Below are positions 12,575 through 64,000 of a stretch of 64,000 nt of DNA, piece after piece. The position numbers and the translations under genes are program-made. Under the pieces are notes generated by a model. It searched no databases. It was not told where the DNA came from and saw nothing but the letters and a program-made list of their open reading frames with translations. Within the stretch, counting starts at the first letter, position 1. Every line of letters starts with the position of its first letter. The DNA is from Phoronis australis (taxonomy: Eukaryota > Animalia > Phoronida), in NCBI GenBank assembly GCA_002633005.1, contig NMRA01000145.1, forward strand, positions 461,898 to 525,897. The letters are read 5' to 3'.

Positions 12575-12929
12575 CACGCGCGTTTACCTCTAAGTGGGAA
12601 ACTGTCAATCTTTCTTTCAATTTCTTTTAGAATTTGTCGGTCCCATCAACTTCAACTGCTCTACATGGTTTTAATACAGGCGGAATGTTCTTACATCCAG
12701 GCAACCTAACAGGGATTATGGTGCTGTCTTCTCCTCTTTCGCTCCTATCGGCAATAATTGACGTAAGAGTACGGAAAGCCACCGACGTGCCTGTGAAGAA
12801 GTCATCACTGCAGAAAACTAGTACATATTGACACGATTTGTCGAGGATAGTCCATGATTCGACAGTGTTCTCTCCACACAACAGATCTCGATCAAGAAAG
12901 AAGCACCGTACTTGCAACTGCTTCTCCAA
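12575..12929 (-). pseudogene. Out-of-frame TIR domain of copy 1
   Basis: LEKQLQVRCFFLDRDLLCG..VLVFCSDDFF..TIIPVRLPGCKNIP aligns to the copy 2 TIR. A second lesion (1-bp deletion giving TAA at 12627-12629) lies before the EI.RK.DSF tail. Confidence 0.85.
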
Positions 12930-14319
12930 GTACGTCAGACACTATTGCGGCAATTTGGTCGATGTCGTCATCATGGTAAACGACACCAAACTCGTACTCA
13001 TCTTCGTATTGTCCCCTAGCTAACCGTTGAGCTTTACTGCTCATTTCTTTTGCACTGTCTGAAGAACCCATTTTCTCATAAATATTCGCCCACAACTCGT
13101 ACAAATCGCTGTCTAGATTTCCGCCATGTTGTTCAGCCTGCTGGCACCGTCCAATGGCGGCATGGTATTCACCTTTCAGGAAATGGGCTTTTGCTAATTC
13201 CCGTGAACAGTACCACACATCAAACCCCTTTTCAATAGCAATTTTAAAACAACCTATGGCTTTGTTGAGTAACTTTACTTTCTCGGAAGAGTTGTCTAGC
13301 TTACACTCACAGTCATATTTCTCAAGACTCCACAGCCCTAGCAAATGGTGACCATAACCATTCTCCTCGTCCAAATCAATAGCTGCTTGCAAATCATCTC
13401 TGGCTTCAGGCATGAAACCCATGTTCATGTATGCGAGACTAGTGCGTCTGAGAATCATAGGCGCGTTTGTAGAAGTTGCTTTCTCATTAGCCTTTTTCAT
13501 ACAGCTTTGTACTGTGCAATCAGAAAATTCTTTTGGACAGTCTAGGCCTTCAACATCTCCCAGTCGTCTATATTTTTGCGGTCGATCGTATCTGGACATA
13601 AGTGATCCTATGAAGCACCATGCCTTTGGGACCGTGTCTTTCCATAACTCTTGTAGAACGGTATCATTCGAAGTTGGGGTTGGCTGTTTGGAGGTCACAA
13701 TCCTATAAAGGTATTCCATTGATTCTTTAAAGTATTTAGACTGCGTCTTGCCGTATGTGTTATCTGTGATGAAACAGAAGTAGGCATATCCGAGAGACCA
13801 TTCTATTTTGGTGTCCTTGGGAACTTCATTGCAATGTATTGCTTCAAGAAACAAACTTCGGGCTACTGGAATACCACCCGGTTGCAGTTGAGCATTGACA
13901 GCTGACATAATCCCAGCAAGCTCATACTTAGCGTACGCCTTACTTCTGTCTACCAACGAATCGTTGGACAGGATATCCTGGATTTTCGTCTCGTACTCTT
14001 CAGCTTTTGAAGGAAGTTTCATTTGTTCATAGGTGAACAGTAGGTTGAGTAGGGCGTTTATACTAGAGGGGTTTTCTGTAAGAACGTCTTCAAACCATCG
14101 AACAGCTTTGTCGTTTTCATTTATTTTGAAGTTCAAATATCCCAGTAAAATCATCATGGTGTGTCTTCTTGCATTCGGTTCACTTTTTATTTCTCTTGAA
14201 AATCGATGAAGGCACTTTTCAAACGTGCCTTTCATGTTCTGTAGAAAGCGGTTTGTGAAAAGGCTGGCGATGCCATCCTTACGCAGTTGCTTCACTACAT
14301 CCCTGCCTTCTGCCATCAT
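12892..14319 (-). CDS. TTC22/IFIT-like TPR protein, copy 1 (475 aa from ATG at 14319); TIR domain lost by frameshift
   Basis: Close paralog of 20188-21945. The true start MMAEGRD follows the acceptor tatattgcag. A 4-bp insertion at about 12930-12933 shifts the frame just inside the TIR domain. Confidence 0.8.
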   Translation of the reverse strand: MMAEGRDVVKQLRKDGIASLFTNRFLQNMKGTFEKCLHRFSREIKSEPNARRHTMMILLGYLNFKINENDKAVRWFEDVLTENPSSINALLNLLFTYEQMKLPSKAEEYETKIQDILSNDSLVDRSKAYAKYELAGIMSAVNAQLQPGGIPVARSLFLEAIHCNEVPKDTKIEWSLGYAYFCFITDNTYGKTQSKYFKESMEYLYRIVTSKQPTPTSNDTVLQELWKDTVPKAWCFIGSLMSRYDRPQKYRRLGDVEGLDCPKEFSDCTVQSCMKKANEKATSTNAPMILRRTSLAYMNMGFMPEARDDLQAAIDLDEENGYGHHLLGLWSLEKYDCECKLDNSSEKVKLLNKAIGCFKIAIEKGFDVWYCSRELAKAHFLKGEYHAAIGRCQQAEQHGGNLDSDLYELWANIYEKMGSSDSAKEMSSKAQRLARGQYEDEYEFGVVYHDDDIDQIAAIVSDVLGEAVASTVLLS

Positions 14320-15649
14320 GAATCTGCAATATAAATTAAAGAGTTTTAGATTCCATGAAAAACCATCCCACCCACATGTTATTTTTTTTTCCAGTACTGC
14401 TTCATACATTCATTCTCAATGAATCGTGACAAATGGTTCTCTCAATGAATCGCGACAAATGGTGAAGCCAATTTAATGTTCTGTTCACCACAGAGAATGT
14501 CCGAAATCATGAAACAACGTCAAAAGATCTTTAAAATAAATGAAAATATGTCTAATGTGGGTGCTGTTTCTTATGACCGGCCACAGTTTACATGTTAGGT
14601 GTTACAATGTACCATGTAGCACAGGGTTCCATAAAATTGCGTAAAGCTGAAAAAACGACAAGGTAGAAACAGGCTCCTTCTGTTATAAAAACTTGTCCAA
14701 TCGAAACGAATAATTGTGCTTGGGAAACTCAGGGAGACATATTCAAAGCAAAAGCCAACGTTTACTGAGTGACGCCAAATCTCAAAACATTTACGAGACC
14801 TCATTGGCGTGTTTTTGTACAATAACGTTTCAACAGATATTTCAGTGAATTCATGATCAATAATTCGTAATACAAAAAGACGACGATGACATTATTTTTT
14901 TAAGCCTTTGCCTGATCTGGAGGGGGCTGTGCGCTGCGGAATTTTTTGGAATCATTTACGAGACGTGCATAAACTCAACAATAGTGATTTAATTAAAATG
15001 AAGATGTAGAAACTAAAAAATTCTACTAATCTATGCTGATGTGCAAAATCAATACACAGCTTTAAAAGTTTTTGACGGACATTTAGAAAAAATAATGCTG
15101 GCCTTGCTTATCATTTACGAGTTTCATTTACGGGAGAACGATTTTCTAATTAGGCCAAGTCCAATAAATTCCACCTACTATTGGCATGTGTGACCTGAAT
15201 ATACAGGCCAATTTTTCAAAAACGAGCACGTGCGCTTCAGCCAACATTGATAGGTCTACTGTCTGAAAATACTCGGTAAAGCAGTCACCAGAACTTTTGG
15301 GTAAGTTTTCAGTAATTTCACTTTTATAATTCATATGTTTCAGTGTTGTTATTAAAGTGCTGAGGGAAGTGACGAAATGCTTCCTGTGAAACATAGTTTG
15401 ATTAGAATTTGCTTGACGTTGGTCTGATAAGTTCTCGCAAAAATTGTCACGTAAATGACATTCAGTGTCCCGTAAGGGATTTGTTTTATTTTTGCCCAAA
15501 TTAAACTCATTTCTTTAAGTAGTAAGTAAATTATTATATGTGACGATACACTGACTTAATGCAGCTGGGATTGCAAATATAGTGATGACATCTTTTTGTT
15601 TTATTTCATACTTATTAATTAAAGTTTGTCACCTTGGTTTGCGTTGCAG

Positions 15650-20187: not shown

Positions 20188-21945
20188 TTAAAGAGCGTTG
20201 TCCTGGATGGTGAAACTTTCAAACTTTCTTTTAATTTCGTCTTTGAATTTATCTGATCCATCAGCTTCAATCGCTCTAAATGGATTTAAAACAAATGGAA
20301 TGTCCTTACATCCAGGTAACTTTGCAGGAATTATGGTGTTACGTTCTCCTCTATCACACCTGACATTTATAATAGACGTCAGGGTATTGTAAGCTACAGA
20401 AGTGCCCGGGAAAAAATTATCACTACAGAAAACTAGGATACAATGGCACATTTTTTCAAGTGCACACCATGTTTCGACAGTGTTATTCCCACATAATATA
20501 TCTCGGTCAAGAAAGAAACACCGCAGATGCAGCTGCTTCTCCAAATCAGTAATTAAAGCGGTAATATGATCAACGTCTTCGTCATGGTAAACGACACCAA
20601 AATCGTGCTTTTCGCTATCATACTGCCCCCTAGCTAACTTTTGAGCTTTATTACTCATTTCTTTTGCGCTGTCTGGACATTCCATCTTTATATAAATTTT
20701 TGCCCACAACTCGTACAACTCACTGTCTAGATTTCCGCCATGCTGTTCAGACTTTTGACAACGTCCGATAGCGGCATTGGGATTACCTTTCATAAAATAA
20801 GCTTTGGCAAGTTCTCGTAAACAATACCACATATCAAACCCCTTTTCAATAGCAACTTCAAAACAACGTATGGCTTCGCTGAGTAAATGTGTTTTATCAT
20901 TGGAGCTGCCTTGCGCACACACGTACTCATAATTCTTAAGAAACCATTGCCCAAGCAAATTGTGACCATAACCACTTTCCCCATCCAGATCGACAGCTTG
21001 TCGCAAACATTTTTCAGCCTCAGGCATCCACGTCTTACCCATGTCCATGTATACTAGACCAGTTCGTCTTAGAATCATCGGTGCGTTTTTCAAAGTTGCT
21101 TTCTCATTAGCCTTTTTCATACAGCTTTGTACTGTGCAACCAGAAAATTCTTTTGGACATTCTAGGCCTTCAACGTCCCCCAGTCGTATGTATTTCTGCG
21201 GTCGATCGTATCTGGACATAAGTGATCCTATGAAACACCATGCCTTTGAAACCGTGTCTTTCCATAGCTCTTGTAGGGCGGAATTATCATCATTCGTGGT
21301 GGGGGTCGGCTGCTTTGAGATAACAATCCTGTAAAAGTATTCCATTGATTTTTTGAAGTATTTATCCTGCGTCTTTCCATATGTATTATCCGTGTTGAGG
21401 CAAAAATATGCATAACCGAGAAACCATTCTACTTTGACGTCTTGGGGAACTTCTTCACAAAGTATTGCTTCCTGAAACAGGTCGTCGGCTACTTGAAAAC
21501 CCCCAGTTTGCAGCTGAGCATTGACAGCTGACATAACACCCGCAAGTTCGTACTTAGCGTAAGCCTTACTTCTCTCTGCCAACGAATCGTTGGACAGGAT
21601 ATCCTGGATTTTCTTCTCGTACTCTCCAGCCTTTGAAGGAAGTTTCATTTGTTCATAAGTGAACAGTAGGTTGAGTAGGGCGTTTATACTAGAAGGTTGT
21701 TCTTTAAGAACGCCTTCGAACCATTCAACGGCTTTGTCGTTTTTACTGGCTTTAAAGTTCAAGTATCCCAGCAGGATCATAACAGTGTGTCTTCTAGCAT
21801 ACGGTTCACTTTCTATCTCCCTTGTATAACGGTTGAGGCACTTTTCAAACGAACCTTTCATGTTCTGTAGAAAACGGTTTGTGAAAAGGCTTTTTATGCC
21901 ATCTTTACGCAATTGCTTCACCACGTCTCTGCCTTCAGTCATCAT
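20188..21945 (-). CDS. TTC22/IFIT-like TPR-TIR protein, copy 2 (585 aa, intact, single coding exon)
   Basis: TPR helices (ILLGYLNF..KAVEWFEGVLKEQPSSINALLNL; AWCFIGSLMSR; LAKAYFMKG). C-terminal TIR: DFGVVYHDED, LRCFFLDRDILCG, ILVFCSDNF, IIPAKL..IPFVL. Confidence 0.88.
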   Translation of the reverse strand: MMTEGRDVVKQLRKDGIKSLFTNRFLQNMKGSFEKCLNRYTREIESEPYARRHTVMILLGYLNFKASKNDKAVEWFEGVLKEQPSSINALLNLLFTYEQMKLPSKAGEYEKKIQDILSNDSLAERSKAYAKYELAGVMSAVNAQLQTGGFQVADDLFQEAILCEEVPQDVKVEWFLGYAYFCLNTDNTYGKTQDKYFKKSMEYFYRIVISKQPTPTTNDDNSALQELWKDTVSKAWCFIGSLMSRYDRPQKYIRLGDVEGLECPKEFSGCTVQSCMKKANEKATLKNAPMILRRTGLVYMDMGKTWMPEAEKCLRQAVDLDGESGYGHNLLGQWFLKNYEYVCAQGSSNDKTHLLSEAIRCFEVAIEKGFDMWYCLRELAKAYFMKGNPNAAIGRCQKSEQHGGNLDSELYELWAKIYIKMECPDSAKEMSNKAQKLARGQYDSEKHDFGVVYHDEDVDHITALITDLEKQLHLRCFFLDRDILCGNNTVETWCALEKMCHCILVFCSDNFFPGTSVAYNTLTSIINVRCDRGERNTIIPAKLPGCKDIPFVLNPFRAIEADGSDKFKDEIKRKFESFTIQDNAL

Positions 21946-22734
21946 GAATCTGCAATATTGAAAGGAATTTTTTTATGCAAAATAAAAGAAACACCCTGTC
22001 GTGTAGATGGAATTGCATGTCTTTCTGTCTCATAAACGAGAATGAAACAGCCCGTCCGACATATGTTCTAAACAATACACCATAGCTGGTACATCTGTAG
22101 CTAAAAAGTTACACGTTAACCGGGAAACGGTCAGTTTGATGGTATTAGGTCTGTTGTCGCTTATAAACGTAACCATTTTGCGATTGGTTAAACCTTGAAA
22201 AATGTTGTCATCACATACTTTGAAATTTCCACAACACGATGATTTAGGTTGTACATTCACAAAATTCGAATACACAAAGCTGACTTCTGAATCAACAATG
22301 TTGCATGAGAGAACTATTTCAGTTCTTTCAAAAGCTGTCCACGAGCGCGTTCGTATACTAACTAGCACTCACACATGTAGGCCCGTACGAAATGCCAAAG
22401 CATAGTTCAACCTGGTCTTTAAGTTTGAATGTACAAAGCCTTTAATCATAATACATAGTTAAGTATTTCGGCCAGGGTCCCTTTGATGCATTATTTAATG
22501 TCAAGTGTTAAAATAATTTGACGGCTTATAATTCGAACACATGGAAAACATCGTTTTTGTCTTTGCTTTTACTAATTATCCCAATTTCTTTGAAACTTAC
22601 TTCGGCATAAATCACTGTGCGACTGTAGATCCGTTTAATTACCTCCCCTGTGGGAATACCCTCCAGGTCTGCCATAACCTCACCCCGCATGTCTATGGTC
22701 CTTGAAAATTATTAGCATATTTGTACCATTGAAA

Positions 22735-23495
22735 ACTGAGGGACGGACGCCAAAAACAGACTCGAAAACAAAAAAATGGCCACTAGGTGGCGCAAAGTAT
22801 GAATCCATCGAAAACGAGAGGATAGCGTCATCTCACTAATAGATGTCTATGTGCCAAATTTTATGGAAATCCGTTGAGGACCTTTGAAGATACAGAGGTA
22901 AACGTAAAAAACTAAAACTGCCACTAGGGGGCACACCGGTACACTGACCTGTTCGAAAGTCGTCGTCGTCCGTTGCCAACTTCATATAAATACATTTGCT
23001 AAATTTAATAGAGATCCTGTAGAACGTTTAGGAGATACAGCCATGGGCGCAAAACAAACAAAACTGCCACTAGGAGGCGCCACTGTAGTCGAAAATCGTC
23101 AACTGTCTTCTTCATAGTAAGAACACACATGCTAATTTTCACAATCATCCTTAAAGTGGTTTGGTTGTTAGACGGGCGGACGCCAAAAAAAAACGACTCG
23201 AAAACAGTAAAAACTGCCACTAGATGGCGTAAAATGCCTCGAATCCATCCGAAAACGAGAGGGTAGCGTCAACTCATTAAAAGATTCCTATGTGCCAAAT
23301 TTCACAAAAATCGGTTGCGGACCTTTGAAGATACAGAGGCAAGCGTACAAAACTAAAATTGCCACTAGGGGGCACAGTGGTATTCGGGTCGGTCCGAAAC
23401 TCGTCGCCCTCTGTCGTCAACCCCATTGGAACACACTTGCCAAATTTCAATAACACCCTGCAAGGGGTTTAGGAGATACAGCCGCGGACGCCGGA
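22735..23495. repeat. Interspersed repeat with about 145-bp internal subrepeats (about 440-bp higher-order unit)
   Basis: CCACTAG(G/A)NGGC core at 22780, 22921, 23067, 23217 and 23362. 22740-22950 is close to 23170-23390. Confidence 0.85.
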
Positions 23496-24952: not shown

Positions 24953-24988
24953 AATACAATACAATACAATACAATACAATACAATACA
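24953..24988. repeat. (AATAC)n microsatellite
   Basis: About 7 direct AATAC units. Confidence 0.95.
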
Positions 24989-27900
24989 AAAAATTGCCTT
25001 TATGTACAACATATCCCAGCCTCTTGGACTTGTATTAAGTTACCTTATACCACTAACACCCAAACAGTTACACAAAATATAGACTGCTCTAAGTAATCTA
25101 GTGCCCTAATGAAAAACCTCGCATGAGGTTCTGGATAGCTTCGAAACAAGTTTAGAAAGGAGGATGACTTGGAAACACCGTTCTTAAACTTTTATAAGTG
25201 GGGCAAGCAAAAATAAGATGCATTTCATCTTCGATTAAATTTTGGCTACCTGTTTTGCAGAATCTTTCATTTAATGGAGATCTGAAAACCACCTCTAATA
25301 GCAAAATTCCTGACCTTGACTCTGCTAACACAGATCTTGATGCAGCGGAACAAATGCATAGCTTTCAATACAGTATTCTGGCTTGAATGTCTTACAGAAC
25401 GTAATAGGTTTCGAGCCAACCAAATCTTTCCAAGCTCTTTCCTCTTCTTAAAAACATGAATAACCAAAATATTTTCATATATATGGTGGTCTCAAAAATT
25501 TGAGGTATGTGGGCCTCTGCCATCAAAACGAGTTTAAGAGTTCCCGAGCTACAATGAAGCGACCAGAGTTGGAGTGAATAACACTGGTGTCGAAATTGAT
25601 AACGTTTTGACAGTGCCCTCAATCAGTGACGGATTGGGAGGAGGGGGGGGGGGGGNATGTCTGACAGGCAAAATCCTGGCTAATTCTCTGCCCTGCCCCC
25701 CACCCCAAATCAAAATCCTGGAGATGCCCTTGTCAGCAGTCTTTAACCCATTTAAACCCACGATGAAAATCAGTTTCTATTACGAAATTGAACGGCCCGA
25801 GACATATTTTGGTTGTACTAAAATTGACCCATTTACCATCATTACATTCTTAAATGCTCTCGTGAGGCACTGCAAATGATATGCGTTCGTATAGGCCTTC
25901 TCGCTAAAGTGATATCGGCTAGCTGTGATGTTTTATGTGAATTGGCAAAAGCACAAAAGGTATGTTTAAGTAAGTCTTGATAGACAATGTACTCGTGATG
26001 GACAATTATTTGTGTACACTATACTCACTCATCCCCTATCATGAGAAAATTTACCTGGTCTCTAGCTACAGCAGTACAGCTCTCGGACTGCTGTTATGTT
26101 TATAACTTATAAAGTTTCAACTTACCGACCCCCTGTTATCACTGCTAGTAGTAAGTAAACATAGGAACTTAACACCCAGCCTAATATTCTGTACACGTAC
26201 ACGCTATAAATGAAATTTTATAAGATACTTAAAGACTTTTCGTTAAAATATTCAAAAACAGCACAAAAACAGTATATGAGAAGACATCGATTTCTTCTAC
26301 ATCCAATATTTATGATTTTACAAAATAATAAGTTGATGTGAAGGTGGTGTATGAATACAAAACTTGTAGTAGTTTTCATTACAGGCTTTGATGTTTTATT
26401 ACAAGCTTTTCAGTTTCATTCTTGCACTTTCGAGAACGTCATGATATTCTCGTAATAGTGGATATAATAGTTTTACAGCTATATCATATAATGAGAACTG
26501 TTTCAGTTTCTCAATTTCATGTCCAAGTGCAAGTTGGTTAAGCAGACGTCACTGGTGTCATCCATTTAAATGAACACCTGTGAGTATAACAAGACACAAA
26601 AATGTCAGTCTTTAATAAAGTTGGCAACTGTTGCCAAGAGAATCTTTGACAATATCAACCTAAATAAGCAATCGTGTTTATTCATTATTTATAGTTTTTC
26701 ATTTGGATGTGTAAACTAAAAATGGTCACTACAATGAATTTAACCACAGTAAACTAATTCTCCATTTTCGTACCAGTATTAAAAGAAACACTCTGAACAA
26801 GATTACTGTACACTTTATATGCATCCCAAAATGAGACTGAAGCTAACCAAGGTGACCTTACAGCGTAGAAATACGCTGATGTCAAAATTTTATAAACTGT
26901 TCTTTTTTCATGGTAGAGTGCAAGCTCTAAATCCATTTGACAATTCAAGGCGTTTCATTGCAACCATCATCATTGTGTTCGATCCCAGAATATGTTTTGG
27001 CTATATATATTCAGTCAAACGTTCCACATATGCTTGGTTAACAATACTGAAGTGAACAGGACAAACACACAGTTGAGCCATATGGCCGTAATTGTGTATT
27101 GGTTCAGTTCCTAGAATCCCATGTAAAGCAGTCTGTACACTGCATGTCCCTTTTTATTCCATTTGTTGTGATAGTAGTCTGTACCCTATTACTACCTTTT
27201 TGTTCTATTTGTTGTGATAGTGTGGGTTGTGACCTACAACCACTTCAGATAGAAACTGAGACTGATTCATATGTGACAGTGGAGATAAAACCAGGAAAAA
27301 TAGATGGGGAACTTCAGTCCCAAGACAGCACCAAAATACCCCACCAACACGTAAAGCTCCGTCATTAAGAGAACAGAAAATAGCTATGCATGTACTCAGG
27401 GTACCTATACAGGGTGCGTGTTCTAAATCATCCAGGGTATTTGATTTATTTTCCCTAGTTAATGGATTGAAGACGACGAAAAGTAAATTTAGCTGTAAAC
27501 AACAGTTTGCCTACCGGTACGTGAAACTTAATTCTTTCTCAAGGAGATCTTATCACTCACAGAGAAGAGGATCAGATGATGGCAAAAAAGTAACGCCAAA
27601 TGAGGTCCACGCTATCATGACAGGAAATGGTGGCAAATCCCAAAGAATTATATCCAATCTCACTAAGTCTTGATCAGCTATAAAATGGCACTTTTGTTTA
27701 ATTCTTATAACAGCAAATCAAAGTATCCCTGGTTTTCAAAGTGGCAGTCCCAGGTGGCCATCTGGTTGTTTCCTACTCTTTTATTTTAGATTATGTTGCA
27801 GGGAACACGCCTAAAATCTGAAAAGCTACATTTCTCTGAAACAAGCTGAACTCTGAAGTTTTTGAAGAGCTTTTTATAAAAGAAAACAATTTGGCTATGG

Positions 27901-31810: not shown

Positions 31811-32920
31811 ACAAACCGATGACATTTCTGTGCAACTTTCACGTATTTAGGAAATTTGAACACTAAGACGTTCACAGTCAAGTTGTTGTTACCACAGTTT
31901 CAACAAACGCACCTTTTCATGTCTGAAAAAGACGGCTCCCCGCGGACTTTCTTCACAACTCCTCAGTATCGCACTGGTACGTAAAACAACAACAACTGAG
32001 GCGGTCTTCCACCCATTGCGTACAAACTCGATTACAGAAAAATATATTTTTAAAATTTTTAGCTTGTTTCGTAGCAACAGGTGTACTAAAGGCTATTAAA
32101 TCTGTTAAGATGTAATAATAAAATTCCTTTTGAAACACAGGGTCATGGTGGGAACTCTTTAAAGTACTTTTGTTCACGAATTATTGTTGGATATTGCAAA
32201 TATGCTATTACTCGCTAATTCTAAGCTATAAGTCTCTCGATAAAAATCAACAATCATTTGGTGTGCTGCGTACATTTTAAACAAAGAACATCAACAGGAT
32301 ACATTTTAGGTGTGGCAAAACGCCCCCTTTCATGTTCTGAAAAAACAACCTCATAGGATATATTTGTATTGGAACATCCACCACCCTTTCACTTCTTGTG
32401 AAATTTCACTTTTGAAATCACTGATGTGGGTATGATGAGCAAAATGTAATTTAATACATTGATGGAGATTGCCACTCGTCTTGCGGCGAAGTGCAACGAT
32501 GTAAGATTATCAACTCTTTCCTGGCCTTTCTTGAGAAGAGGTGAATCTATCCCATGGGTGAGTTTAAATTCACCCATCATTTTCCCCAGGTTCATCAGAC
32601 GATAACAGGAGCCTGCTTTGTATTTTAGGCTGCTCCCGAACAGGCAACGGATTTCTGTCTTGGCTCCGAGTTGTAAGCAGATTTTTGACTTGTAGCTTGA
32701 GCCATGCCAAGACTGATTCTTCACCTTAGAATAAAAAGACAACAGACTCTTCCGACAAACAGCCCTTTGATATTACTGAGGTCTGAATAAGTTGGCAGTC
32801 ACTGCGATAGTCGACGAAACGTTTTATTTCGAATAATTGAAGCCATGCCTCTTTAAATAGCGCTCAGATGTTAAGTAGATCTACCATGAACACTTACTTC
32901 CATATGAATTTTCAATCACA

Positions 32921-33009
32921 TTTACCTCGAAGAGACAAACTATCAATCTATCTTTTGCATTCATGAATTTATCTGACCCATCAACTTCAATTCCTTTGCA
33001 TGATTTTAA
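32921..33009 (-). pseudogene. Remnant of the 3' end of another TPR-TIR copy
   Basis: Minus strand reads LKSCKGIEVDGSDKF, versus LKPCRAVEVDGTDKF (copy 1) and LNPFRAIEADGSDKF (copy 2). The DNA aligns with 12582-12675. Confidence 0.8.
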
Positions 33010-34791: not shown

Positions 34792-36504
34792 TTAATCACG
34801 TTTATCCAAGCAGTTAACGTCTCTGTTAATTTCGTCGATGTATTTATCAGCGTCAACCTCTATAAGTGAATTTAAATCCCTTGGAATATCTTTACATCCG
34901 GGTAACTTTGCAAGAGTTATGGTGCTTTTATCTCCTCTACTGAACCTGCCATTTATAATAGATTTCAGGGTTACGTTAACTTCTGAATTGCTAGGGAAAA
35001 ATTCACCACTACAGAAAACTAGGATACGGCAGCACGACTTGTCGAGTGTATCCCATGGTTCAAGACTTAATACATCTCCATCAAGAAAAAAGATCCTCAA
35101 GCACAGCTGCTTTTTCAAATTATCAAGTATCGCAACAACTTTATGGATGTCGTCGTCATAGTAAACGAAACCAAAATCGTACTTTTCATCATACTGCCCC
35201 GTAGCTAGCTTTTCAGCTTTACTTCTCATTTTTTTTGCTTCTTCTGGATAATCCATTTTAACATAAATTTTTGCCCACAACTCATACAGCTCTTTGTCTA
35301 GATGTCCGCCATGTTTTTCGGATTGTTGACAACGCCTAATGGCGTCACTGCAATCACCATTCAAAAAATGAGCATCGGCAAGATCCAAATAACAGTGCCA
35401 CAAAATGAAACCCCTTTTAAGGGCATCTTTAAAACAGCCAATGGCTTCTTTGAGCAAATCAGTTTTCTCGGAGGTTTTATCTTGCTCAGGTGTTAACTTA
35501 TACTTCTTAAGATGCCATCGTCCTAGCAAATTGTAGGCGTAACCGTTTTCTGGATCCAATTTGACTGCATCTTTAAAATATTGTTCTGCCTCCACCATCG
35601 ATTCCATATCCATATATACAAGACCTGTTCGTCTCAAAATCACAGGCTTATTGAAACGATTTGCTTTTTCATTCGCTTTTTCCATGCAACTGTGTAGTGT
35701 GCACGCAGAATACCCTTTTGGACAATCTATAACACATTTCAGTTCTTCATATCTTGTGAATCGATCATATCTTGACAAAAGTGTTCCCATGAAACACCAT
35801 GCCTTTGGAACTAGGTCGTTGAATTCCGTCTCTTGTCTGGCAAACTCATCAGCATCCTCGCGTTGGACCGGTTTTTCCATTGTAACTATTCGATAAAAAT
35901 ATTCCATTGATTCTTTGAAGTGTTCAGGCTGTGTCTTTCCATAAGCAGAATCTATGTTGAAGCAAAAGAATGCATATCCAAATAGCCACTCTAACTTTTC
36001 ATTTTCAGGAACTTCACTGCAACCTATTGCCTCTTGAAACAAGCTGCGGATTACTGGAATACCCCCGGGCTGTAGCTGAGCATCAATAGCCGACATAATG
36101 CCCGCCAGTTCATACTTAGCACGGACTATACTCTTTTTTGTCAACAAACCATTTGACAGGATGTCTTTTATTTTCTTCTTGTATTCTTCTACTTCTCGTT
36201 GTTGTTTCATTCCTTCGTAGATATATAGTAGATGAAGAAGTGAGTTAATGTTATTAGCGTCATCACTGACAACTGTTTCAAAGTTTTTAATGGCTTCATT
36301 GCAGTTACCATCTTTATAGTTGAGATAGCCCAGCAAGATCCTTACGATGTGTGTTCGAGCATGCGGCTCTCTTTCTATTTCTTTTGAAAAGCGATCAAGG
36401 CACTCTTTAAGCGTGACTTTCATGTTCAATAGAAAGCGATTTATGAAAAGGCTGTCGATACCGGCTTCATGCAGTTCTTTTACTACGTCCATGTCTTCCG
36501 CCAT
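34792..36504 (-). CDS. TTC22/IFIT-like TPR-TIR protein, copy 3 (570 aa, intact, more divergent)
   Basis: Collinear with copy 2 (AKYELAGIMSA, AWCFMGTLLSRYDR, ILRRTGLVYMDM, YDFGFVYYDDD, ILVFCSGEFF). The acceptor ttattacag lies just upstream of the ATG. Confidence 0.88.
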   Translation of the reverse strand: MAEDMDVVKELHEAGIDSLFINRFLLNMKVTLKECLDRFSKEIEREPHARTHIVRILLGYLNYKDGNCNEAIKNFETVVSDDANNINSLLHLLYIYEGMKQQREVEEYKKKIKDILSNGLLTKKSIVRAKYELAGIMSAIDAQLQPGGIPVIRSLFQEAIGCSEVPENEKLEWLFGYAFFCFNIDSAYGKTQPEHFKESMEYFYRIVTMEKPVQREDADEFARQETEFNDLVPKAWCFMGTLLSRYDRFTRYEELKCVIDCPKGYSACTLHSCMEKANEKANRFNKPVILRRTGLVYMDMESMVEAEQYFKDAVKLDPENGYAYNLLGRWHLKKYKLTPEQDKTSEKTDLLKEAIGCFKDALKRGFILWHCYLDLADAHFLNGDCSDAIRRCQQSEKHGGHLDKELYELWAKIYVKMDYPEEAKKMRSKAEKLATGQYDEKYDFGFVYYDDDIHKVVAILDNLKKQLCLRIFFLDGDVLSLEPWDTLDKSCCRILVFCSGEFFPSNSEVNVTLKSIINGRFSRGDKSTITLAKLPGCKDIPRDLNSLIEVDADKYIDEINRDVNCLDKRD

Positions 36505-38112
36505 TATGAAACTGTAATAAAAAAATGAAATTTAATGCAACACATGTATGGGACATTCGATGGTCTGAAACAATAAATCTTCTGTATTCCACTAAAAACG
36601 CGAATGTGCAAAAAAGGAACTTAATTCTCTTGGTCAAACTTATTAATCTACACCAATTTATGGTCAACAAAATGTCCGAATAATAAAAGGGCGTTCCAAG
36701 ATCAAAGACAGTATACCCACACCAAGTTTACCAGTTGGGTACCAGTTACCAGAAAATACAACCCTTAAATATGAATTGTAACTGGAAATACCTTTATCTT
36801 TTTTGCCAAATTATACTAAAAGACATGGTCACATAACCCAATTAATGCCAGATTGGCACAAAGTTAAAAATGACGGTATAAAGACTTTCCACATTCATAA
36901 ACTATATACTTTTACAGCGCTAATTTGCACAAGTTTCCGATATTATTTGACCATGCTCAGACAAGTTTTTAACTTGTCCTCAGTACTACTCAGCTTATCG
37001 ACCAAAGTCAAAGTTTGGCTTTTAAATTTGAGCTATAGCAGTCTTGTATGTTTTACTGGTACAGTAAATCCACCAAAAGAAAGTACTTCCATCCAACCAT
37101 CCGTGGTGCTAGCCAACTGGCAACACCCTACAAACATGTCTAATGCGCCTGGTTATGAATACCCATTGTGTGACCTAGTTGAATAAGTGTCCGCTTCTTT
37201 CAAGGTCGAGTCGATTCCCATTCTGGCTGGGGCACACTGACCCTGGAGTCAGGTAACTAGCTCCTCAACTCAGCCGGTTTTAACTATTGATTAATAAAGC
37301 ATAAAAATGGTTCTAGGTGATAAGCGCAATGAACCCACCTGCGCACGTCTGATACAACTTGTATCTGATCGCTTTGATGCGTCTGTCAACACTAGTATTG
37401 CTTTTCAGAGCTTGGAGGGTCTTTAAAAAGATAAGATCTTGCAATAAAGTAGAGCAGTATCACAAATGAATTCCAAGCACTTACGTTGCACCAATCAAAT
37501 AACCGTTGCCAAAAGTTCGGTTCCCTTTGCAGTAAATCCTCCCGTCAATATTGAATTCGTGTCTTCGCTCTGGCTCCTACAATGGTCGTCACAGTTTAAG
37601 CTTCCGCGTAGAGTTCAAAGATCAAATAAATGATCTATAGATCTTGAAATTCAATAATAACTACAAATTACTTCTAGAATAAACTTAATGATTCCTCACC
37701 TTCACTAACAATCAAATGATTCCTAACTAAAAAGAAAGCAAACCATACCGATCTTTTGACGATCCATTACTCGACGCGTAAGGTTATTTATGTGTGCATA
37801 GTAACGCGTCTGTGCTGAGGTGTGAAACATCGATAGTATATAACGTAAAGAATTCCGTCTGCCCAGCTCCACTACCGGCCTCAGTTGCACCCATTTCGAC
37901 ACCGACTTTGTCACAGGTAGTGCATCTCACCTTTATTTAGATTCGAATTGTTCTTCCTGTTTCCTCGCAGGCTGTTTTTTTCGCGGACGCGGAGAGTTGG
38001 CCTACTAGTCTTGGCCTTGTGTTGACGTCGGACCGTCGGATTAATTTCACTCCCTCTGTATTCCACCTTAAATATTCTTCTTCGATCGGGCTTCGCTGTC
38101 GCCGCTAAACGT

Positions 38113-43170: not shown

Positions 43171-43644
43171 GGGGTGATTCGCCGTAAAATGAAACAATTG
43201 TTACGTTTTACGTGATTGTTAAATTTTACGTTGGTAAGCCTCTCCTAAAATGTAAGAAGTTGTTACATTTTACGTAATTATTACATTTTACGTCGAATGC
43301 ACATGCGAGAAATGTACCATTGTTACATTTTAAAAAACCAACGTCATATCACAAAGAAAATGACTAAAATCACGAACAAGTGGTATCTGACACGGCCGGG
43401 GTTACTCGTGTATTTTTGGACGAGTGGTGCCACCCGAAAAGGAACATTTTAAATAAATTTTTTTAGAAAACAGCACCATTTCGGAGAGTATTTTTGGTGT
43501 GTAAAAACACCCTTTTGGGCGGAACTTTTCGTATGCCTCTTCTATCGGAATACCCTCCGGACGGCTGACACGTCATAAATTTGGCTAACCATTATTATTA
43601 TTATTACTATTACTATTACTATTTCTATTATTACTGTTATACCG

Positions 43645-44760: not shown

Positions 44761-44896
44761 GAATGGTCTGATACTACCTACCACCTTACAGCCTGCGGAG
44801 TACCGAGATCAGGCAGGGCGCGGGGAAATAAAAGCGTGGGCTAATTTTTAAAAGAGCGGATCCACTGATTAGCGTTGCCTGTATTACAGGTTCACG

Positions 44897-45630
44897 ATGG
44901 TTAAAAGAGAAGCCTCCAAGATGCATCGTAAAGATGGAATTGATAACCTGTTCACCCATCGGTTCCTGCAGAACACGAAAGACTCGTCCAAGCAACCCGA
45001 GAACCGAGAACGCTTTTCAAGAGAAAGTCGAAGACGTCCCATTGTGATTATGCTGGGATATTTAAAATTTAAAGTTAAGAAATGCCCAAATGCTATCGGA
45101 TGGTTTAAAAAGGTCCTTAAAGAAGATTCATACAATTTAAAGGCCTTGCACAGTCTGGTACTCGTTCACGACCTATTGAAATTGCCAAAGCGGCTGGAGA
45201 GTATGAGGAAAGAATTTACGATGTTCTAGCGATGATTCTATGATGGACATTTCCATGGCGTGCGCCAAGTATGAACTTGCAGTCATTTAGACGACAGATG
45301 GTACTCATTTTCAGCCTGGTGGAGTTTCAGTAACCAAAAATCTTTTCTGTCAGGCTCTGTAAGGTAAAGAAATTCTCCACGTTGACCAGAAAGAAAGACA
45401 ACTTGCTTACGCATTTTTTGCTTTAAATTTAGACCAAGTTGACTGAACATTTCGTAGAAGCGGTGGGAAATTTCTATGGGATAATAACCATCAGTGAAGA
45501 AAAACACCTGGACGGAAGAACGCGCTGCGAGATAAAGTGACGTTAACTGCAAAGGCGTGGTGTTTTGGGGAAGTCTTTGGTTTAAACACAAATGATTTGA
45601 AGAGTACAGGAATTAAGAATGATTCCATAA
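44897..45630 (+). pseudogene. TPR-TIR family pseudogene, copy 4 (5' half only)
   Basis: MVKREASKMHRKDGIDNLFTHRFLQN.. followed by frameshifts, with recognisable AGEYEERIYDVL, AKYELA, QPGG and KAWCF. It has a 24-bp deletion relative to copy 5. Confidence 0.85.
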
Positions 45631-54759: not shown

Positions 54760-55065
54760 TTTTATTATGAGTCCAGCGTCCGCAACTGTATCTCCTAAAC
54801 CTCTCATAGGACCTTGGTGAGATTTGGCAGATGTGTTTGCGTGACTGAGCTGACGACAGATGGCGACGAATTTCGGACCTATTCGACTATTGGTGTGCCC
54901 CCTAGCACCAATTTTTATTTTTTTACGTTTACCTCTACGCCTTCGGAGGTCTTCAACGTATTTTCATAAAATTTGGCATATAGGCATCTATTAGTGAGAT
55001 GTCAGTCGACGTCATTTTAGATACTGCGACTACTGCTGCCCCCTGGTGGCAGTTTCTATAGTTAG
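54760..55065. repeat. Reverse-oriented partial copy of the 22735-23495 repeat family
   Basis: ctgtatctcctaaac, aaatttggcatataggcatctattagtgagatg and gccccctggtggcagt are reverse complements of blocks at 22.8-23.5 kb. Confidence 0.8.
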
Positions 55066-57699: not shown

Positions 57700-60490
57700 T
57701 CTGATTTTGAGACCGAGAAACGTGGGGACGGAAGGAGCCAAAGTCAGGAGAACAGCGAATATTACAAACGTGACTGTAGCTTGTCTAGGAGCATTCGAAC
57801 ATTCATTTTGGGTGAACTGTGAGGGAGGAAATGCAAGTACCGGGAAACATTAATAGGGACGAAAACGAAAAAGGGCTAAGAAATGCCCTAACCAGAAAAA
57901 GCTATTACGGTCTTTGAGACTGAAATGAAAATGAATTTTGATATTTCAACGAAAATATTCTGCAAATTTATCCATCTTTATCCTAGAGAAGTTACAGTTG
58001 ACTTGTTACTGTAGCAACATTTGTCCAAATCCACACGAGACGGCAAAATGTAAAAGTATGCGGAATGGATTAACTATGATTGATGTTGATGATAAAATTG
58101 AGTGTACCATTCCCAATAAACTCAAGCGTTTTCCTCTTGAGTTGCATGTTCTTGTTTGTTGGTAACAGAAATAAAATTCTAACCCGGTGTTTAATGTTGT
58201 GCGCCCGATTGTAAAAGAGTACAAGGCGCAATCGCTTTTTGTTCTTTAGACATTTAAACATAGCGAAATGGAGCGACGTTCTTGGCAAGAGAGGTACATG
58301 TACATGAAGTTTTCCAGAAATGACCAGTGACTCGGAATCAAACCCCGCTTCCTACAGTGTATGCAGTAGGAGTCGGACGCCGCTGTGCCACAGAGCCAAA
58401 TCTCACGAACTAAATTGGAAATATTTTTTTCAAAAGCGGTTTTAATGCTATATATAGCACCGTCGGACAACGACGAGAATTAATGATTTGTATCAGAATC
58501 CCATAACACCACGGGTTTTGTTGTTTAGTAGCCAAGCTAATAACTGAACGCCGGGTTTTACCATCCAAAAATAATCCCCAAAATACGTCTTTCCGCAGTA
58601 AAACCTTTTAAACAACACGGATTAAAGCAAAGAAAATTTCCCGGAGACCCCTTCGGGTCATGGTTACCTCAAACCAGCGTTCTATAGACGCAAGACGCTT
58701 GCGAAGAGAATTTTCTATCATAGTTCAATGTCCAGTCCTTTCAGTGTCTGCCGTTTTACAAGGAAACATTAGTTAGCTTCCGAGCAAAAAATATTCGCCT
58801 TTCATTCGACGAGTGATTTTTGCTTGATCTTGCTTCATTATGAGTTTCTCTCGTGTTCAAAACGTACTTCAGAGGAAGGTCCCGAAGAACAAGTTTTTTG
58901 CGGTACTAGCGAGACCACGAAGGCGAAAGTTTACTGAGCAAGCTCGGGAATTTCAGTGTTCATTACATCACTATCTCGGATCATTCCACGAGACTGTAAT
59001 GGGTAGTAAGCTACATTATTCCAACTTCATAAGGCAATTAAGATTTCTGCCAGCAAGTTTCTGGTTTGCACTACGTTACGCAGTCCACTTTATGCGAATA
59101 ACTCCGTGTAGTACTGACGAACAACTAAAAGATTAACTTCAGATGTTGCCCCCTGACGACTTGGATTTTTTACCACTTGTTCGAATTGAATGAGGGATGT
59201 CCCTATCCACGAAATAGATCGGGAGGTGCTCGGCTATATTTGGTGGGTTTTGTGGATGGGAAATTGAAATACCAACCTTTCAGTAGAGAGTCGGCAGGAT
59301 GCGATTAACCAAATTCAATCCAGATTAAGACGCACACTTGTTAGGAGCTTCTGTAAAAATCACCTCGTAGAGTTTTCCAGCTTTTCACACAAATTATAAC
59401 TGAGAGGCACGTTCCGAATGAGCGGCATTCATTTATCTAAGTGAGCGACAACAACTGTCGACGTCTGCAACAACAGTAAAACAAAGGAGCATCCGAGTCA
59501 TAACCAACACAAGAGGTCGCTTTGTGGGAAAATTATTATTATTTCCTGATATGAGCTGATCGACCCACAACAGACAAGGCAGAAATAAAGAGATCAACAT
59601 ACTTTAGGATAATCATTCCTTCTACATGTTCATAGCCGTATTCCGTGTTGTTCAGCTCTAATACATACCTGAGCTCATTGACCAAAGTTGTCGAAGTTAG
59701 ACTAAGGTAAGTGGAATGCATTTTCAGGCCTTCATGTTACTGCGACCCAGTGACCTTTCGATTGACGACAATGTCATCAACTGGTCTAAAGAACATCGAT
59801 CACTGCTAAGCCATCCACTATGTACTTTGGCTACAGGCTGTGTACGTGGTTATTTATTGTAGGGTATAATTTCATAAGATACATCAAATTATCAAGAATT
59901 TCCGGAAAAAGGTACAAGCAACGTCAGAGATTATGCTGAGAATCAATTTCTTGGAAATCCAGGGACAAGCTTTTTCTGTGTTGGAAGCTAATTAACTTGC
60001 ATATCAATTTTAAAATTGGTGCTTCCTTGTTGGTGGGTGTAATGTTTTTGTTGTTTGTATTTGTAAACGCTCACTAAATTACGGATGGGCGTCACAGCAC
60101 TGAAATAAGTGTGTGTGTGGGGNGGGGGGGGGGGGAGGGCTACAGTCCTCTAGCCTCCCATAGTGCGCCGCTATGTGACCATGGGCGGCACATCACTGAA
60201 ATAAATGGGGGCTATAGCCCCCAGCCCCCTATGGTGCGCCATAGACCTTAAAGACATTTACAGAAGGGCCATGGAAAAAGCTGTTGGATTGTGTCACTCT
60301 GTAGATCTATTTAGATGGAATAGTGAACTGGAAGTATGTCAAACATTTTCTGCTTAAAAGCTAACAATAATCGTTATACCCTTTACTTATCATGGAACCA
60401 CGCTTCCTATTATTAAATACTCTCAGACAACAAACTGAAATGCCAGAGACTTGCACTAGCTATAGACCCTAAACCGAAGTGGCCAAAAAT
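57700..60490 (+). repeat. Longer copy of the duplicated block at 41620-43170
   Basis: Same blocks in the same order, with extra sequence at about 57870-58650 and 58720-58900 that is absent from the first copy. Confidence 0.9.
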
Positions 60491-62393
60491 GAAGCAGGGA
60501 CTGTCCAGGTGTCCCAAAATCCATCACACTTTTAAACCTGGAGAATTTCGTACATTCTACTTCCAGAATGCATCATTTGCGATCAGAAAAATGCGTTGTG
60601 AATAACGTCTCAAGAAATAGAAATATAGAAATATGCAATACGTACGTTTTCGTGAAGCATTGTGTTTTTCAAGATTCAGTTAAAGGTTGTTTACGATCTT
60701 ACACTAGATAGAATTGAATAGACATTAGTATTCAATTTTGATTGAGAACTCTTTCATTTGAAACAGTTCTTATGACAACAAGCGCGTGCATGCTTGCATT
60801 CACTCATTCAACACGAATCTGGTATCTGAGATGAAGACTTCATGCGAAGAATTCTGCAATATTGAGATGGGGACCGCTTTTCAGAGAGGAGTTTTATGAA
60901 ACAAAACGGCGACTCCCAATGACGAATGATCCCCGCAAAGCCCAAAGTATTTTGGGTTATTTAATTCACTCTGTTTAGTGCGTTTTATGCAGTTGCGTTT
61001 TATACAGTTATGTTGTTGAAGAAGCAGCTGACTGGTTTATTTGCATTAATTGCCAAGGGAGTCATTTTTTATTTACAAACTTGTGATATTGGTTTTGACA
61101 GCTGTATCAATGCTTTCGTACATAGATTTCCTTAGCGACTATTTTTGGATTCTCGTAATAGTTCCATTGTTTATGCTATATCTTTGATAACGCGGACAAT
61201 GTTTGCTTCAGACAACTTAAATTTTCCAAAACTCCAATGATACTTTGAGTTTTAAAAAACTAAAGACTTGAATTTTGTTGTGTTAACAAATTATGACTGT
61301 TGAAAATTTTTCCTTTATTCTTGCAAACTATTAAAATTATATTGCATTGAATCTTGAACATTTTCGGTATACCTTGGCTGCGGTTGGTAGACCAAGTTTC
61401 TTGCGAAAGAAGGGAGATCAAGCAATTCCACGCTAGATATCGCCATGCATTACAACTGAAACACACGACTCAACCAACTTTTCTCATGAATGCTCTGATA
61501 ATACCTAACACCCAATACACCGCGGAGTACTGTCTAGCACAGACAGGATTAAGGCGAAATAAAAAGGCGACCTAATACTCTTAGGAGTGACTCCATATAA
61601 AAACCAACAAGTAGAGTCGATATCCAAAACCACAGATTTTTTAGACATATAACATGAGGTTTGGTGAGATGTAGAAAAATCTCACTTTTTAAGAATTTTC
61701 ACCCATTATTTTTCTTTTTATGACATGTACCTAGCTTCATTTGGTTTCCCTTGCTGAACTCAGACCAGTTACAATATTGTGCGCCGGAGTAGACATATTT
61801 GAATGCATTTTGCTAGCATGTATTGTAAGCTCATAACAAACGAGTGATACGATTTGAAAGGAACATGATTGAATAAGTTAATGGCACAACATTCAAAATT
61901 CATTTTGAAATCTGTATGCTTTTGTGTGGCAAAAACGGCTATTTTGAACGTTTTCACTGAAGCCATTTTCGACCAGCTTTGGCACTCTTTAGCAGCCATA
62001 TTGCTCTATTCCAAGAACTGACCTTATAATATAATAATCTGTTCAGTCATTCCTATTCTGTTCATAATGTAAAATAAAAAATCTTGCCTATTACTTACGA
62101 AGGATTACACGACTAACCGCTGCGGCTGCTCCTATTTGCCTGTTCTCAGTTGCCTCAACCACCAATAGGAGGCTCTTGGAACATGAAATTAGCTTGCAAA
62201 ACACAGGCGACAGCTTGTATCATGGACAGCGCAGTACTGAAAAAGTGTGTGTGTGNCAACACAAGTAACGGTCTCAGTGAACTTCAAACATACCACGTGA
62301 CTGCCTCCGTAGCCTAGCAAGGGAGGGGGGTCAGGTGCCCCCTGGCGCCTGCCGAAGAGATTGCCATACAGATGTTGTCTAACACCAGCCTCC

Positions 62394-62534
62394 CGTTCAG
62401 TAACGCTAGGACCTAGCTTAAAAGCAAGACTTTGCGAGATTACGCGAGATATTGCCGTGTATTTTAAATACGAGCACGTGACCTTGACTAGCTTTTGGCT
62501 AGGTCCTAGCGTAGGTCCTAGCGTCTACTGAACG
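62394..62534. mobile_element. About 140-bp MITE-like element
   Basis: cgttcagtaacgctaggaccta ... taggtcctagcgtctactgaacg inverted ends. Confidence 0.65.
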
Positions 62535-63720
62535 CACGCCCGGTATCTGTTAACTGGGGGGCTACACCGCTAACAACCGGAGTGGGGTAGGGGGGTGCCA
62601 CTTGAGGTGTCGACAGGGGGCAAGGAAGTGCTCGCCACTAGACTGACTACTGTCATTTCAGGTGTTCAGGGTACAGACACTTTCTGCTTGGGTGAAAACA
62701 TCGCACACCTCACGTCTGGTCCTGCTCAGTCACAAATTTACCTACTCTGGTTAGTAAGAGCTCATCCTCTGGCACTGGTCTTGATTTATGAGGTACTTTA
62801 CAGCATTTTATATGTTCTGAAGTGCCTTTAGCATGACTGACCAAAGCCACAAAGCTTTCGTGATGCACTTTTTGAACATTCTCTAAATGACTTCCGTTCC
62901 CCATTTTGTCTTTAAGCACATGATACCCTGGACCAGTCTTTACAAATAACAATTCCTACAAGTTCAAAATTCAAAGAGTGTTTAAATTAACCTGTTAATG
63001 GAAGAAAACAAGAGCAGCTACATGTACAAGTTTTTGATATATTCTCAAACCTAATGTCAACTGACTCACTGAGCAAAGGTCACCGGGTTCAGTTTTGATA
63101 CTGACCGCGTAATACATCCAGAAAACAACTTGTTTTCATTTGAAAGAGCTTAGACTTGATTTTTAGAACAACTTAATGCAGAATTTGTGTTTATATTTTC
63201 GTCCAAATGATCTGTAAACTCATCATTTCCGAAGAAGTCTGTTTTGAAAGACAATTTTCACTAAAATAAAGCAAGATATTTTTTGCTCAAAGTGCAATAT
63301 GGCGGTAAGTGGGTCACTAAATTAGCTAGGAAAAGTGGATTATCTCCTCTGTCTAGCACGTAGCTATCAAATTTGAATAAATACTAAATAATTATGCACA
63401 GTATACATTGGTTATTGCAGACACGAAAGCACAACTTTTAAACTAGTTTGTAAGTTACTTATTTTCGTTGCTAAAAACATACAATTTTCAAAACAGCTAA
63501 TATGACCAATTAAGGTCTAATGCTCCAGCGGTGAAATTAAGGGTCATTGAGTGCACAAAATGTACGTTTTTGTTAGGATACCTATCCATGTACAAAAAGT
63601 GAAGTTGTTTTGAATTTTGACGTATAGACTATCTTTGAAGCTCTACTGGTTTTTATATAGCCTGCCTCTTAGTTCTTTAAAAGGAAATCCACTGATTAGC
63701 ATTGCCTGTATTACAGGTTC

Positions 63721-64000
63721 ATGATGGTTGATAGAGAAGTCTTCAAACAGCTTCGTAAAGATGGAATTGATTGCCTATTCACCAACCGGTTCCTGCAGAA
63801 CATGAAAGACTCGTTCAAGCAACCCGAGAATCGAGAACGCTTTTCACGAGAACTAACGAATGAACCGCATGCGCAAAGTCGAAGACGCCCCATTATGATT
63901 TTACTGGGATATCTAAATTTCAAAGTTGATAAATGCAATGATGCTATTGGATGGTTTAAAAAGGTCCTTGAAGAAGATCCAAATAATTTAAACGCCTTGC
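63721..64000 (+). CDS. TPR-TIR family copy 5, N-terminus (3'-partial; not in the ORF track)
   Basis: ttacag acceptor, then MMVDREVFKQLRKDGIDCLFTNRFLQNMKDSF...MILLGYLNFKVDKCNDAIGWFKKVLEEDPNNLNAL, open to the window end. Confidence 0.85.
   Translation, partial: MMVDREVFKQLRKDGIDCLFTNRFLQNMKDSFKQPENRERFSRELTNEPHAQSRRRPIMILLGYLNFKVDKCNDAIGWFKKVLEEDPNNLNAL

Follow-up and report, generated by a model that had tools for sequence, protein, structure and literature searches.

A cluster of related TPR-TIR loci

We examined a 64,000-nt stretch of the genome of Phoronis australis (contig NMRA01000145.1; hereafter the window), in which a tandem cluster of genes joins a tetratricopeptide repeat (TPR) region to a C-terminal Toll/interleukin-1 receptor (TIR) domain. 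Searches of the window against itself with tblastn and blastn place six related loci between positions 12572 and 64000, and recover all six of those that an earlier reading of the letters (the original prediction) had assigned to about 51 kb. Copies 1 to 3 and a remnant lie on the minus strand, and copies 5 and 6 on the plus strand. Copy 2 (20188..21945) is intact and encodes 585 amino acids (aa), with the TPR region at about residues 5-441 and the TIR at about 445-578; copy 3 (34792..36504) is likewise intact and encodes 570 aa, with a degenerate TIR from which the BB loop is deleted. The TPR region of copy 1 (12627..14319) is open, within a 475-aa open reading frame (ORF) that stops at 12892, and its TIR DNA is out of frame. 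The remaining loci comprise a remnant of the TIR-coding 3' tail (32910..33009; 75% identity over 103 nt to copy 1, E 1e-11), the copy 5 pseudogene (44897..45566), in which the 5' part of the TPR region survives, interrupted by stops and frameshifts, and copy 6 (63721..64000), the 5' end of a further copy that stays open up to the window end. At most three of the six loci are intact. Two intact genes, one pseudogene, one remnant and one gene crossing the window end had been foreseen correctly; the description of a further copy as 'TIR-less' is wrong at the DNA level. Inspection of copy 1 reveals that the TIR sequence is still there, 61% identical to copy 2 in DNA; its frame is broken where 4 nt have been inserted near 12935, and another lesion lies near 12628. 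From 12850 to 13502, this copy is matched with zero differences by a DNA contig whose sample is the likely source of the window.

Across the TPR region, copies 1 and 2 are 78% identical, and copy 3 is 56-57% identical to either. Copies 5 and 6 have upstream blocks in common (41622-44804 and 57704-61530), at 70-85% identity. A short plus-strand frame at 43579-43941, directly upstream of the copy 5 pseudogene, resembles by eye a decayed piece of a LINE reverse transcriptase. Hydropathy averaged over 19 residues peaks at 1.08 in copy 2 and 1.24 in copy 3, in both cases within the TIR; no transmembrane segment is therefore apparent in either protein, as the original prediction had held, and the products would on this account reside in the cytosol.

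Gene structure and transcription

The genes had been described as single-exon, which is accurate for the coding region and inaccurate for the transcripts, in that copy 3 is spliced to upstream 5' exons. An exon at 37485..37576 (minus strand) is joined to an acceptor at 36511, 7 nt ahead of the ATG, by 13 junction reads from RNA run X8 and one contig from X5; besides the donor at 37485, alternative donors lie at 37339 and 36910. None of the three joins supplies an in-frame ATG and two contain stops, with one remaining stop-free throughout its 92-nt exon, such that the upstream exon is most likely 5' untranslated sequence. An N-terminal coding extension, which the length of relatives in the ESM Atlas (about 750 aa) might suggest, is unlikely: the extra length of those proteins is a long linker between the TPR region and the TIR, the joins bring in no in-frame ATG, and residue 10 of IFIT already aligns with residue 5 of copy 2. 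The combination of acceptor and start codon is common to five loci (5 matches against 0.08 expected; none of 100 shuffles reaches 5). Retrocopying is rejected as the origin, given the splice acceptor retained in five copies and the upstream DNA common to two; the loci are duplicates made at the level of DNA.

We assessed expression in three stranded raw-read runs (X6, X7 and X8) that carry the same species label, covering about 18-19% of each. Copies 1, 2 and 3 are transcribed. With reads counted from 90% identity, a threshold at which paralog reads may contribute, sense-strand depth is 1.1-3.9 for copy 2 in all three runs, with none on the opposite strand, and for copy 1 is 2.7-6.5 in X8 and 0-1.5 in X6 and X7. 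Copy 3 is represented by 92 reads at no less than 99% identity in X8 and by none in X6 or X7, and contigs of X5 tile most of the gene. In X6 and X7 there are also reads whose substitutions agree with none of copies 1-3, at a depth that rises in one place to about 30; they suggest further paralogs or distant alleles. The differences between runs may reflect tissue, treatment or missing copies.

Relationship of the TPR region to TTC22

A profile built from the three copies retrieved 361 proteins at E <=0.001 from among 1.84 billion, most of them generic TPR proteins with short matches. From the 150 of these that were listed, we picked 21 with long or collinear matches, and 14 of the 21 bear a TIR_2 domain. 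TIR-bearing relatives come from Ptychodera, Saccoglossus, Lytechinus, Anneissia, Holothuria, Asterias, Acanthaster, Patiria, Branchiostoma and Pinctada, and two Lingula relatives likewise carry a TIR, so that the groups represented are sea urchin, sea stars, sea cucumber, crinoid, acorn worms, amphioxus, pearl oyster and Lingula. Proteins annotated as 'TTC22-like' in Acanthaster (XP_022102196.1), Holothuria (KAJ8024572.1), Branchiostoma (XP_035668305.1), Pinctada (KAK3092866.1) and Lingula (XP_013418613.1) all resemble the window copies in having a collinear TPR region and a C-terminal TIR. A TIR is missing from gar TTC22 and from 'TTC22-like' relatives in Ptychodera and Glandiceps. The fusion of TPR region and TIR is hence not peculiar to this animal; it is an old and widespread architecture, spread across invertebrate bilaterians.

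The N-terminal 440 or so residues of the window proteins are collinear with both the invertebrate TPR-TIR proteins and gar TTC22 (XP_006635058.1), the latter aligning by HH comparison with a probability of 97% (E 8e-11, 26% identity, 274 columns). The TTC22 motifs that the original prediction had listed are visible in this alignment. Profiles from which the window copies were left out score these copies at 141-161 bits and, in a second test, at 54-106 bits; none of 22 generic TPR proteins exceeds 34 bits, and none of 60 shuffled sequences exceeds 6. The comparison is partly circular, in that the relatives had been found with the window profile. The ESM Atlas is independent of that search: there, the full protein falls with mollusc and echinoderm clusters at 0.97-0.98 (TIR_2 being present in 91% of the echinoderm cluster), and, of the ten rows listed when the TPR part is the query, two are TTC22 clusters and five are IFIT clusters (0.94-0.95). 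Word-based homolog searches returned no match to copy 2 among 5348 candidates and, with alignment A2, 17 generic TPR proteins only. One candidate relative, P0104, was dropped as a generic TPR protein.

In a tree of 24 rows, which held no IFIT, the window copies form one clade on a long branch of 2.49, placed only tentatively apart from gar TTC22 by a split with support of 72/50. Their identity to any relative is only 17-21%, they lack the N-terminal CH.TW/GHF motif, and their linker between the TPR region and the TIR is much shorter. Vertebrate TTC22, for its part, has the collinear TPR region and differs in having no TIR and a multi-exon coding region. Judged as TTC22 in the strict sense, the window genes depart in the presence of the TIR, the absence of the GHF motif and a single coding exon, as against several in mouse. 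From these comparisons the copies belong to a TTC22-like superfamily without established TTC22 orthology, an assignment that we make with high confidence.

Several relatives have unusual layouts. P0142 of Saccoglossus (1069 aa) has a TRIF-like arrangement: its TPR region is shortened, a long linker of low complexity separates this from a TIR in the middle of the protein, and in the long C-terminal tail an 'IQIG' stretch is reminiscent of a RHIM motif. In Branchiostoma, the amphioxus TPR-TIR gene also yields the shorter isoforms P0178, P0182 and P0183 (521-527 aa), of which P0178 ends inside the TIR, suggesting that the TIR can be lost by splicing.

Predicted fold of the TPR region

To compare folds, we used a model of copy 2 predicted from a 22-sequence alignment with no template and no IFIT sequence (mean pLDDT confidence score 83, pTM score 0.69; residues 3-9 and 15-31 fall below a pLDDT of 50). 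This model replaced one from a three-sequence alignment, in which the TIR was poor. The predicted structure bears out the proposed layout of a TPR region of about 440 aa followed by a C-terminal TIR. Among 959 chains selected by Foldseek and aligned with VIA-align, IFIT5 and IFIT1 structures (PDB 4hot, 5w5h and 5udi) occupy ranks 1-11, with Z 20.5-23.5 and a root-mean-square deviation (rmsd) of 5.0-5.4 over 360-372 residues, and are thus the best structural match over the whole TPR region; LGN comes next, at Z 20.2 over 261 residues. Residues 5-441 of the model overlie IFIT residues 10-413 or thereabouts, in register from the N-terminus. The best Foldseek query TM-score is also that of IFIT5, at 0.45, and a profile of the TPR region, made from an alignment that included a row carrying a partial TIR (P0178), finds IFIT5 as its best natural protein (E 1e-13). 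The IFIT-like fold put forward originally is in this way recovered in the Foldseek-seeded comparison, and less strongly in a wider search described below. Homology to IFITs is likely.

The likeness extends to the loci. IFIT loci also form tandem clusters, in which nearly all of the coding sequence occupies a single exon that follows a short 5' exon (PMC3688568), with the difference that their ATG is in exon 1 and that of the window copies in the last exon. IFITs, moreover, have no TIR, share 16-17% identity with the window copies, and are interferon-induced and RNA-binding proteins, whereas the window genes are known here from sequence, models and RNA reads. IFITs have been described as restricted to jawed vertebrates, with which they arose together with interferon, and with the closest acorn-worm and amphioxus matches rejected as non-IFIT TPR proteins (PMC3688568); the accessible part of that study makes no mention of TTC genes.

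Predicted fold of the TIR

Residues 445-578 of the copy 2 model superpose on the TIR of MyD88 with Z 16.6 and an rmsd of 2.6 over 132 residues, consistent with the claim of a C-terminal TIR fold, which the model upholds for this copy. TIRAP, TRIF, Hydra TRR-2, oyster TIR-STING and TRAM follow at Z 15.0-15.8, and SARM1 at 13.9. By sequence the domain is more divergent, matching Pfam TIR_2 at E 1.4e-5 (26 bits, slightly below the cut-off of 28) and MyD88 weakly, at E 0.0035. The DRD.L.G pattern of the BB loop is kept in copies 1 and 2. As placed by alignment, the position of the NADase glutamate, which we take to be the catalytic residue of helix alphaC, is Thr521 in copy 2 and also Thr in copies 1 and 3; Glu stands at the matching position in 7 of the 20 relatives of alignment A2. 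Because the catalytic Glu is absent, the domain would be a scaffold rather than an NADase. Most likely, copy 2 has such a scaffolding TIR in full, copy 3 has a degenerate version, and in copy 1 it is cut off. The TIRs of MyD88, TIRAP, TRAM and TRIF are alike in fold (Z 14.2-16.6), in the DRD.L.G pattern of copies 1 and 2 and in lacking the catalytic Glu. They differ in that the window proteins have no death domain or membrane anchor and that the BB-loop Pro is replaced by Cys or deleted; this Pro is likewise missing in many relatives.

Evolution of the copies

Ratios of nonsynonymous to synonymous substitution (dN/dS) in the TIR are 0.21 for copies 1 and 2 (confidence interval (CI) 0.11-0.38) and 0.19, near saturation, for copies 1 and 3. 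The highest value, 0.58 (CI 0.36-1.01), is that of copies 2 and 3, and arises partly through low dS. Pairwise comparisons among the copies show no positive selection. Sites that unite copies 2 and 3 number 44 of 294 at first and 96 of 277 past about codon 294, a shift reached in none of 1000 permutations; the mosaic fits gene conversion, and faster change in the 3' half of copy 1 could contribute to the signal. Multiple paralogs occur elsewhere too, with five relatives in Patiria (26-88% identity), of which three are assigned to a contig of identical length, and two in Acanthaster. Together, the sequences support a process of birth and death, and do not support very recent duplication or positive selection.

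A candidate family of cytosolic immune sensors

We propose that the copies are tandem duplicates of an old invertebrate TPR-TIR gene related to TTC22 and IFITs, and that the intact products are likely to be cytosolic immune sensors. In the mechanism that we envisage, a foreign ligand, perhaps RNA ends of the kind bound by IFITs, would be captured in the TPR clamp; its binding would cause the TIRs to cluster; and the clustered, non-enzymatic TIRs would recruit MyD88-like TIR adaptors. Copy 1, with its TIR cut off, and copy 3, with no BB loop, may serve as ligand-binding effectors or decoys. The mosaic among copies, the expression differences between runs, and the further reads that match no copy are features that accord with a sensor. 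None of the outcomes named beforehand as contrary to such a family, namely a C-terminal domain without a TIR fold, a TPR region without affinity to TTC22 or IFITs, or an unexpressed single-copy gene, was observed. We assign the sensor-plus-TIR mechanism a probability of about 0.45, and regard an immune role of some kind as somewhat better than an even bet.

A number of observations weigh against this mechanism. In a wide structural search of 48,161 representatives, LGN/Pins is at the top (Z 20.1) and the sole IFIT among the matches listed is IFIT2, at rank 15 (Z 16.4). By Foldseek E-value, designed TPRs, SPY and OGT stand ahead of IFITs; CDC27, at E 2.5e-11, leaves IFIT5 a margin of only about 200-fold in the TPR-region profile; and no IFIT was matched when the PDB was searched with single sequences, either gar TTC22 or a relative from a hemichordate. 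An RNA ligand is itself doubtful. By profile offset, Arg293 of copy 2 maps to Arg253 of IFIT5, an RNA-binding residue whose mutation lowers RNA binding (PMC9677429), on the presumption that no gap intervenes across 12 positions. The same offset puts Met at IFIT5 Tyr250 and Leu at Lys257, neither of which is kept, and within the IFIT5 pocket (Gln41, Lys150, Arg186, Tyr250, Arg253 and Lys257) the 250-257 stretch is the only part placed. Net charge of the TPR region is +3 in copy 2, -8 in copy 3 and -3 in copy 1. In the BB loop, Cys485-Gly of copy 2 stands in place of the Pro-Gly of MyD88, with Cys in copy 1 as well and the loop deleted in copy 3, whose TIR gave no TIR match when searched alone. 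Given these atypical TIRs and the loss of the BB loop in copy 3, the term 'receptor' may therefore not fit every copy.

Selection and expression raise further difficulties. Pairwise dN/dS in the TPR region (Nei-Gojobori) is 0.24-0.29 at dS 0.5-1.1, indicating purifying selection, and no 50-codon window exceeds 0.77. These values bear also on the idea of a 'rapidly turning-over' family: duplication with loss stands, and 'rapid' does so only in part. Expression is low. Two motifs resembling the interferon-stimulated response element (ISRE) at 26408..26518 (minus strand), 93 nt apart and about 4.5 kb upstream of copy 2, form a candidate promoter element. Such motifs number 14, as against 6.3 in dinucleotide shuffles, an enrichment that is not significant, given that 6-15 of 100 order-3/4 Markov simulations reach 14. 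Lastly, Ttc22 knockout mice show no phenotype, and the accessible part of that report does not mention IFIT, TIR or immunity (PMC13693868).

Several of these observations would be accommodated if the products were protein-binding adaptors or dampers, in which the TPR groove holds a peptide in the manner of LGN or OGT and the atypical TIR blocks or routes TLR/MyD88 signalling. The replaced or deleted BB-loop Pro, the lead of LGN/Pins in the wide structural search and a TPR region that is not net basic in two of the three copies all suit such a role, as do the reported binding of TTC22 to RPL4 (PMC13693868) and the placement of TIR-TPR proteins among adaptors in oyster surveys (PMC4346834). IFIT5 and IFIT1, however, align about 100 residues further than LGN, and do so in register from the N-terminus; lineage-specific turnover, in addition, would suit variable foreign ligands more than fixed partners. 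The altered BB loop also carries less weight if TRAM, as we presume, signals with Cys at this position. We consider this adaptor or damper role somewhat unlikely. Quite unlikely, in our estimate, is that the proteins are direct IFIT-like effectors whose TPR region alone sequesters foreign RNA or blocks translation, the TIR becoming vestigial. Purifying selection acted on the TIR of copies 1 and 2 until recently (dN/dS 0.21), and the TIR of copy 2 models as a complete fold. Copy 1, on the other hand, is transcribed with an open TPR region and a broken TIR, and the TIR-less relatives in gar, Ptychodera and Glandiceps offer a proposed parallel, with the TIR lost in vertebrate TTC22 and some hemichordate copies too. 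The raised dN/dS in the copy 3 TIR (0.58 against copy 2) would also suit decay; it owes something to low dS, though, and fits gene conversion.

Two other explanations appear less probable still. The cluster might consist of non-immune scaffold genes, duplicated by chance in a repeat-rich region beside EXOC7, most of whose copies are being lost by drift. Transposon genes and numerous repeats are indeed interspersed with the copies, expression is low, no positive selection is seen and Ttc22 is dispensable in mice (PMC13693868). Drift of this sort is difficult to reconcile with purifying selection on three copies across dS 0.5-1.1 and with the several paralogs of other invertebrates. Animal TIR domains, furthermore, mostly function in immunity or cell death, and we regard the scaffold explanation as very unlikely. 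A SARM1-like or bacterial-type NADase, in which a ligand on the TPR region switches on cleavage of NAD+ by the TIR, is brought to mind by bacterial TIR-TPR anti-phage systems (bioRxiv 10.1101/2023.05.26.542521) and by the alphaC Glu that about a third of the A2 relatives (7/20) keep. All three window copies have Thr at that position, and the predicted fold is nearer to MyD88 and TIRAP (Z 15.8-16.6) than to SARM1 (13.9), which makes such an enzyme highly improbable here.

Relation to described families

A class named 'TIR-TPR' appears in surveys of oyster (PMC4346834) and Aplysia (PMC9334734). It resembles the window proteins in joining a cytosolic TIR to TPRs in invertebrates, and is known from the accessible parts of these surveys by name only, without sequences, domain order or a link to TTC22 or IFITs. 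In the open-access literature we found no paper that links TIR, TTC22 and IFIT; the bivalve ecTIR-DC classification, whose families are cited in PMC6321704 and PMC5549309, may cover the family, and the accessible portions of PMC2575513, PMC11359984 and PMC12543323 contain nothing on this family. In databases, several relatives already carry the label 'TTC22-like' or 'TIR domain-containing'.

A TIR-bearing invertebrate form would suggest a function for TTC22, which is without a known immune role, and its wide distribution would give the IFIT and TTC22 families an origin. Taken further, and more tentatively, the genes may represent an undescribed class of cytosolic RNA-end receptors of bilaterian invertebrates: an IFIT-type clamp wired to a TIR, older than interferon, evolving by birth and death, and parent of both TTC22 and IFITs through loss of the TIR, with that loss under way in this cluster. 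If so, the window would display stages of the loss, from copy 2, which is complete, to copy 3, without its BB loop, and copy 1, whose TIR is cut off in a gene that is still transcribed. For animals that lack interferon, a widespread form of this kind would be a candidate antiviral sensor. Copy 2, as a compact single ORF, is directly testable, and copies 1 and 3 offer natural TIR-defective controls.

Neighbouring genes and repeats

To the left of the cluster lies a multi-exon, spliced EXOC7 (Exo70) gene at about 1000-8539 on the plus strand, in which two of four exons scanned match Exo70_C, and which is usable as a synteny anchor in other genomes. Between copies 5 and 6, a DDE_Tnp_4/HTH_Tnp_4 transposase (47806-49050, plus strand; E 6e-44) is convergent with a gene for a SWIM domain and a YqaJ-like exonuclease (50317-51651, minus strand; E 8e-19). 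The pair resembles what we take to be ISL2EU-type elements of the PIF/Harbinger group, and we found no clear terminal inverted repeats enclosing both genes. Tandem repeats occur at 2615-3048, 4927-5245 and 44105-44429, their units measuring about 60, 52 and 78 bp, respectively. A high-copy repeat at 22606-23839 contains an internal duplicate (22738-23050 and 23171-23491), has a further copy at 54772-55001, and is covered by RNA reads to a strand-biased depth of 350-420 in each of the three runs; these reads probably derive from copies elsewhere in the genome.

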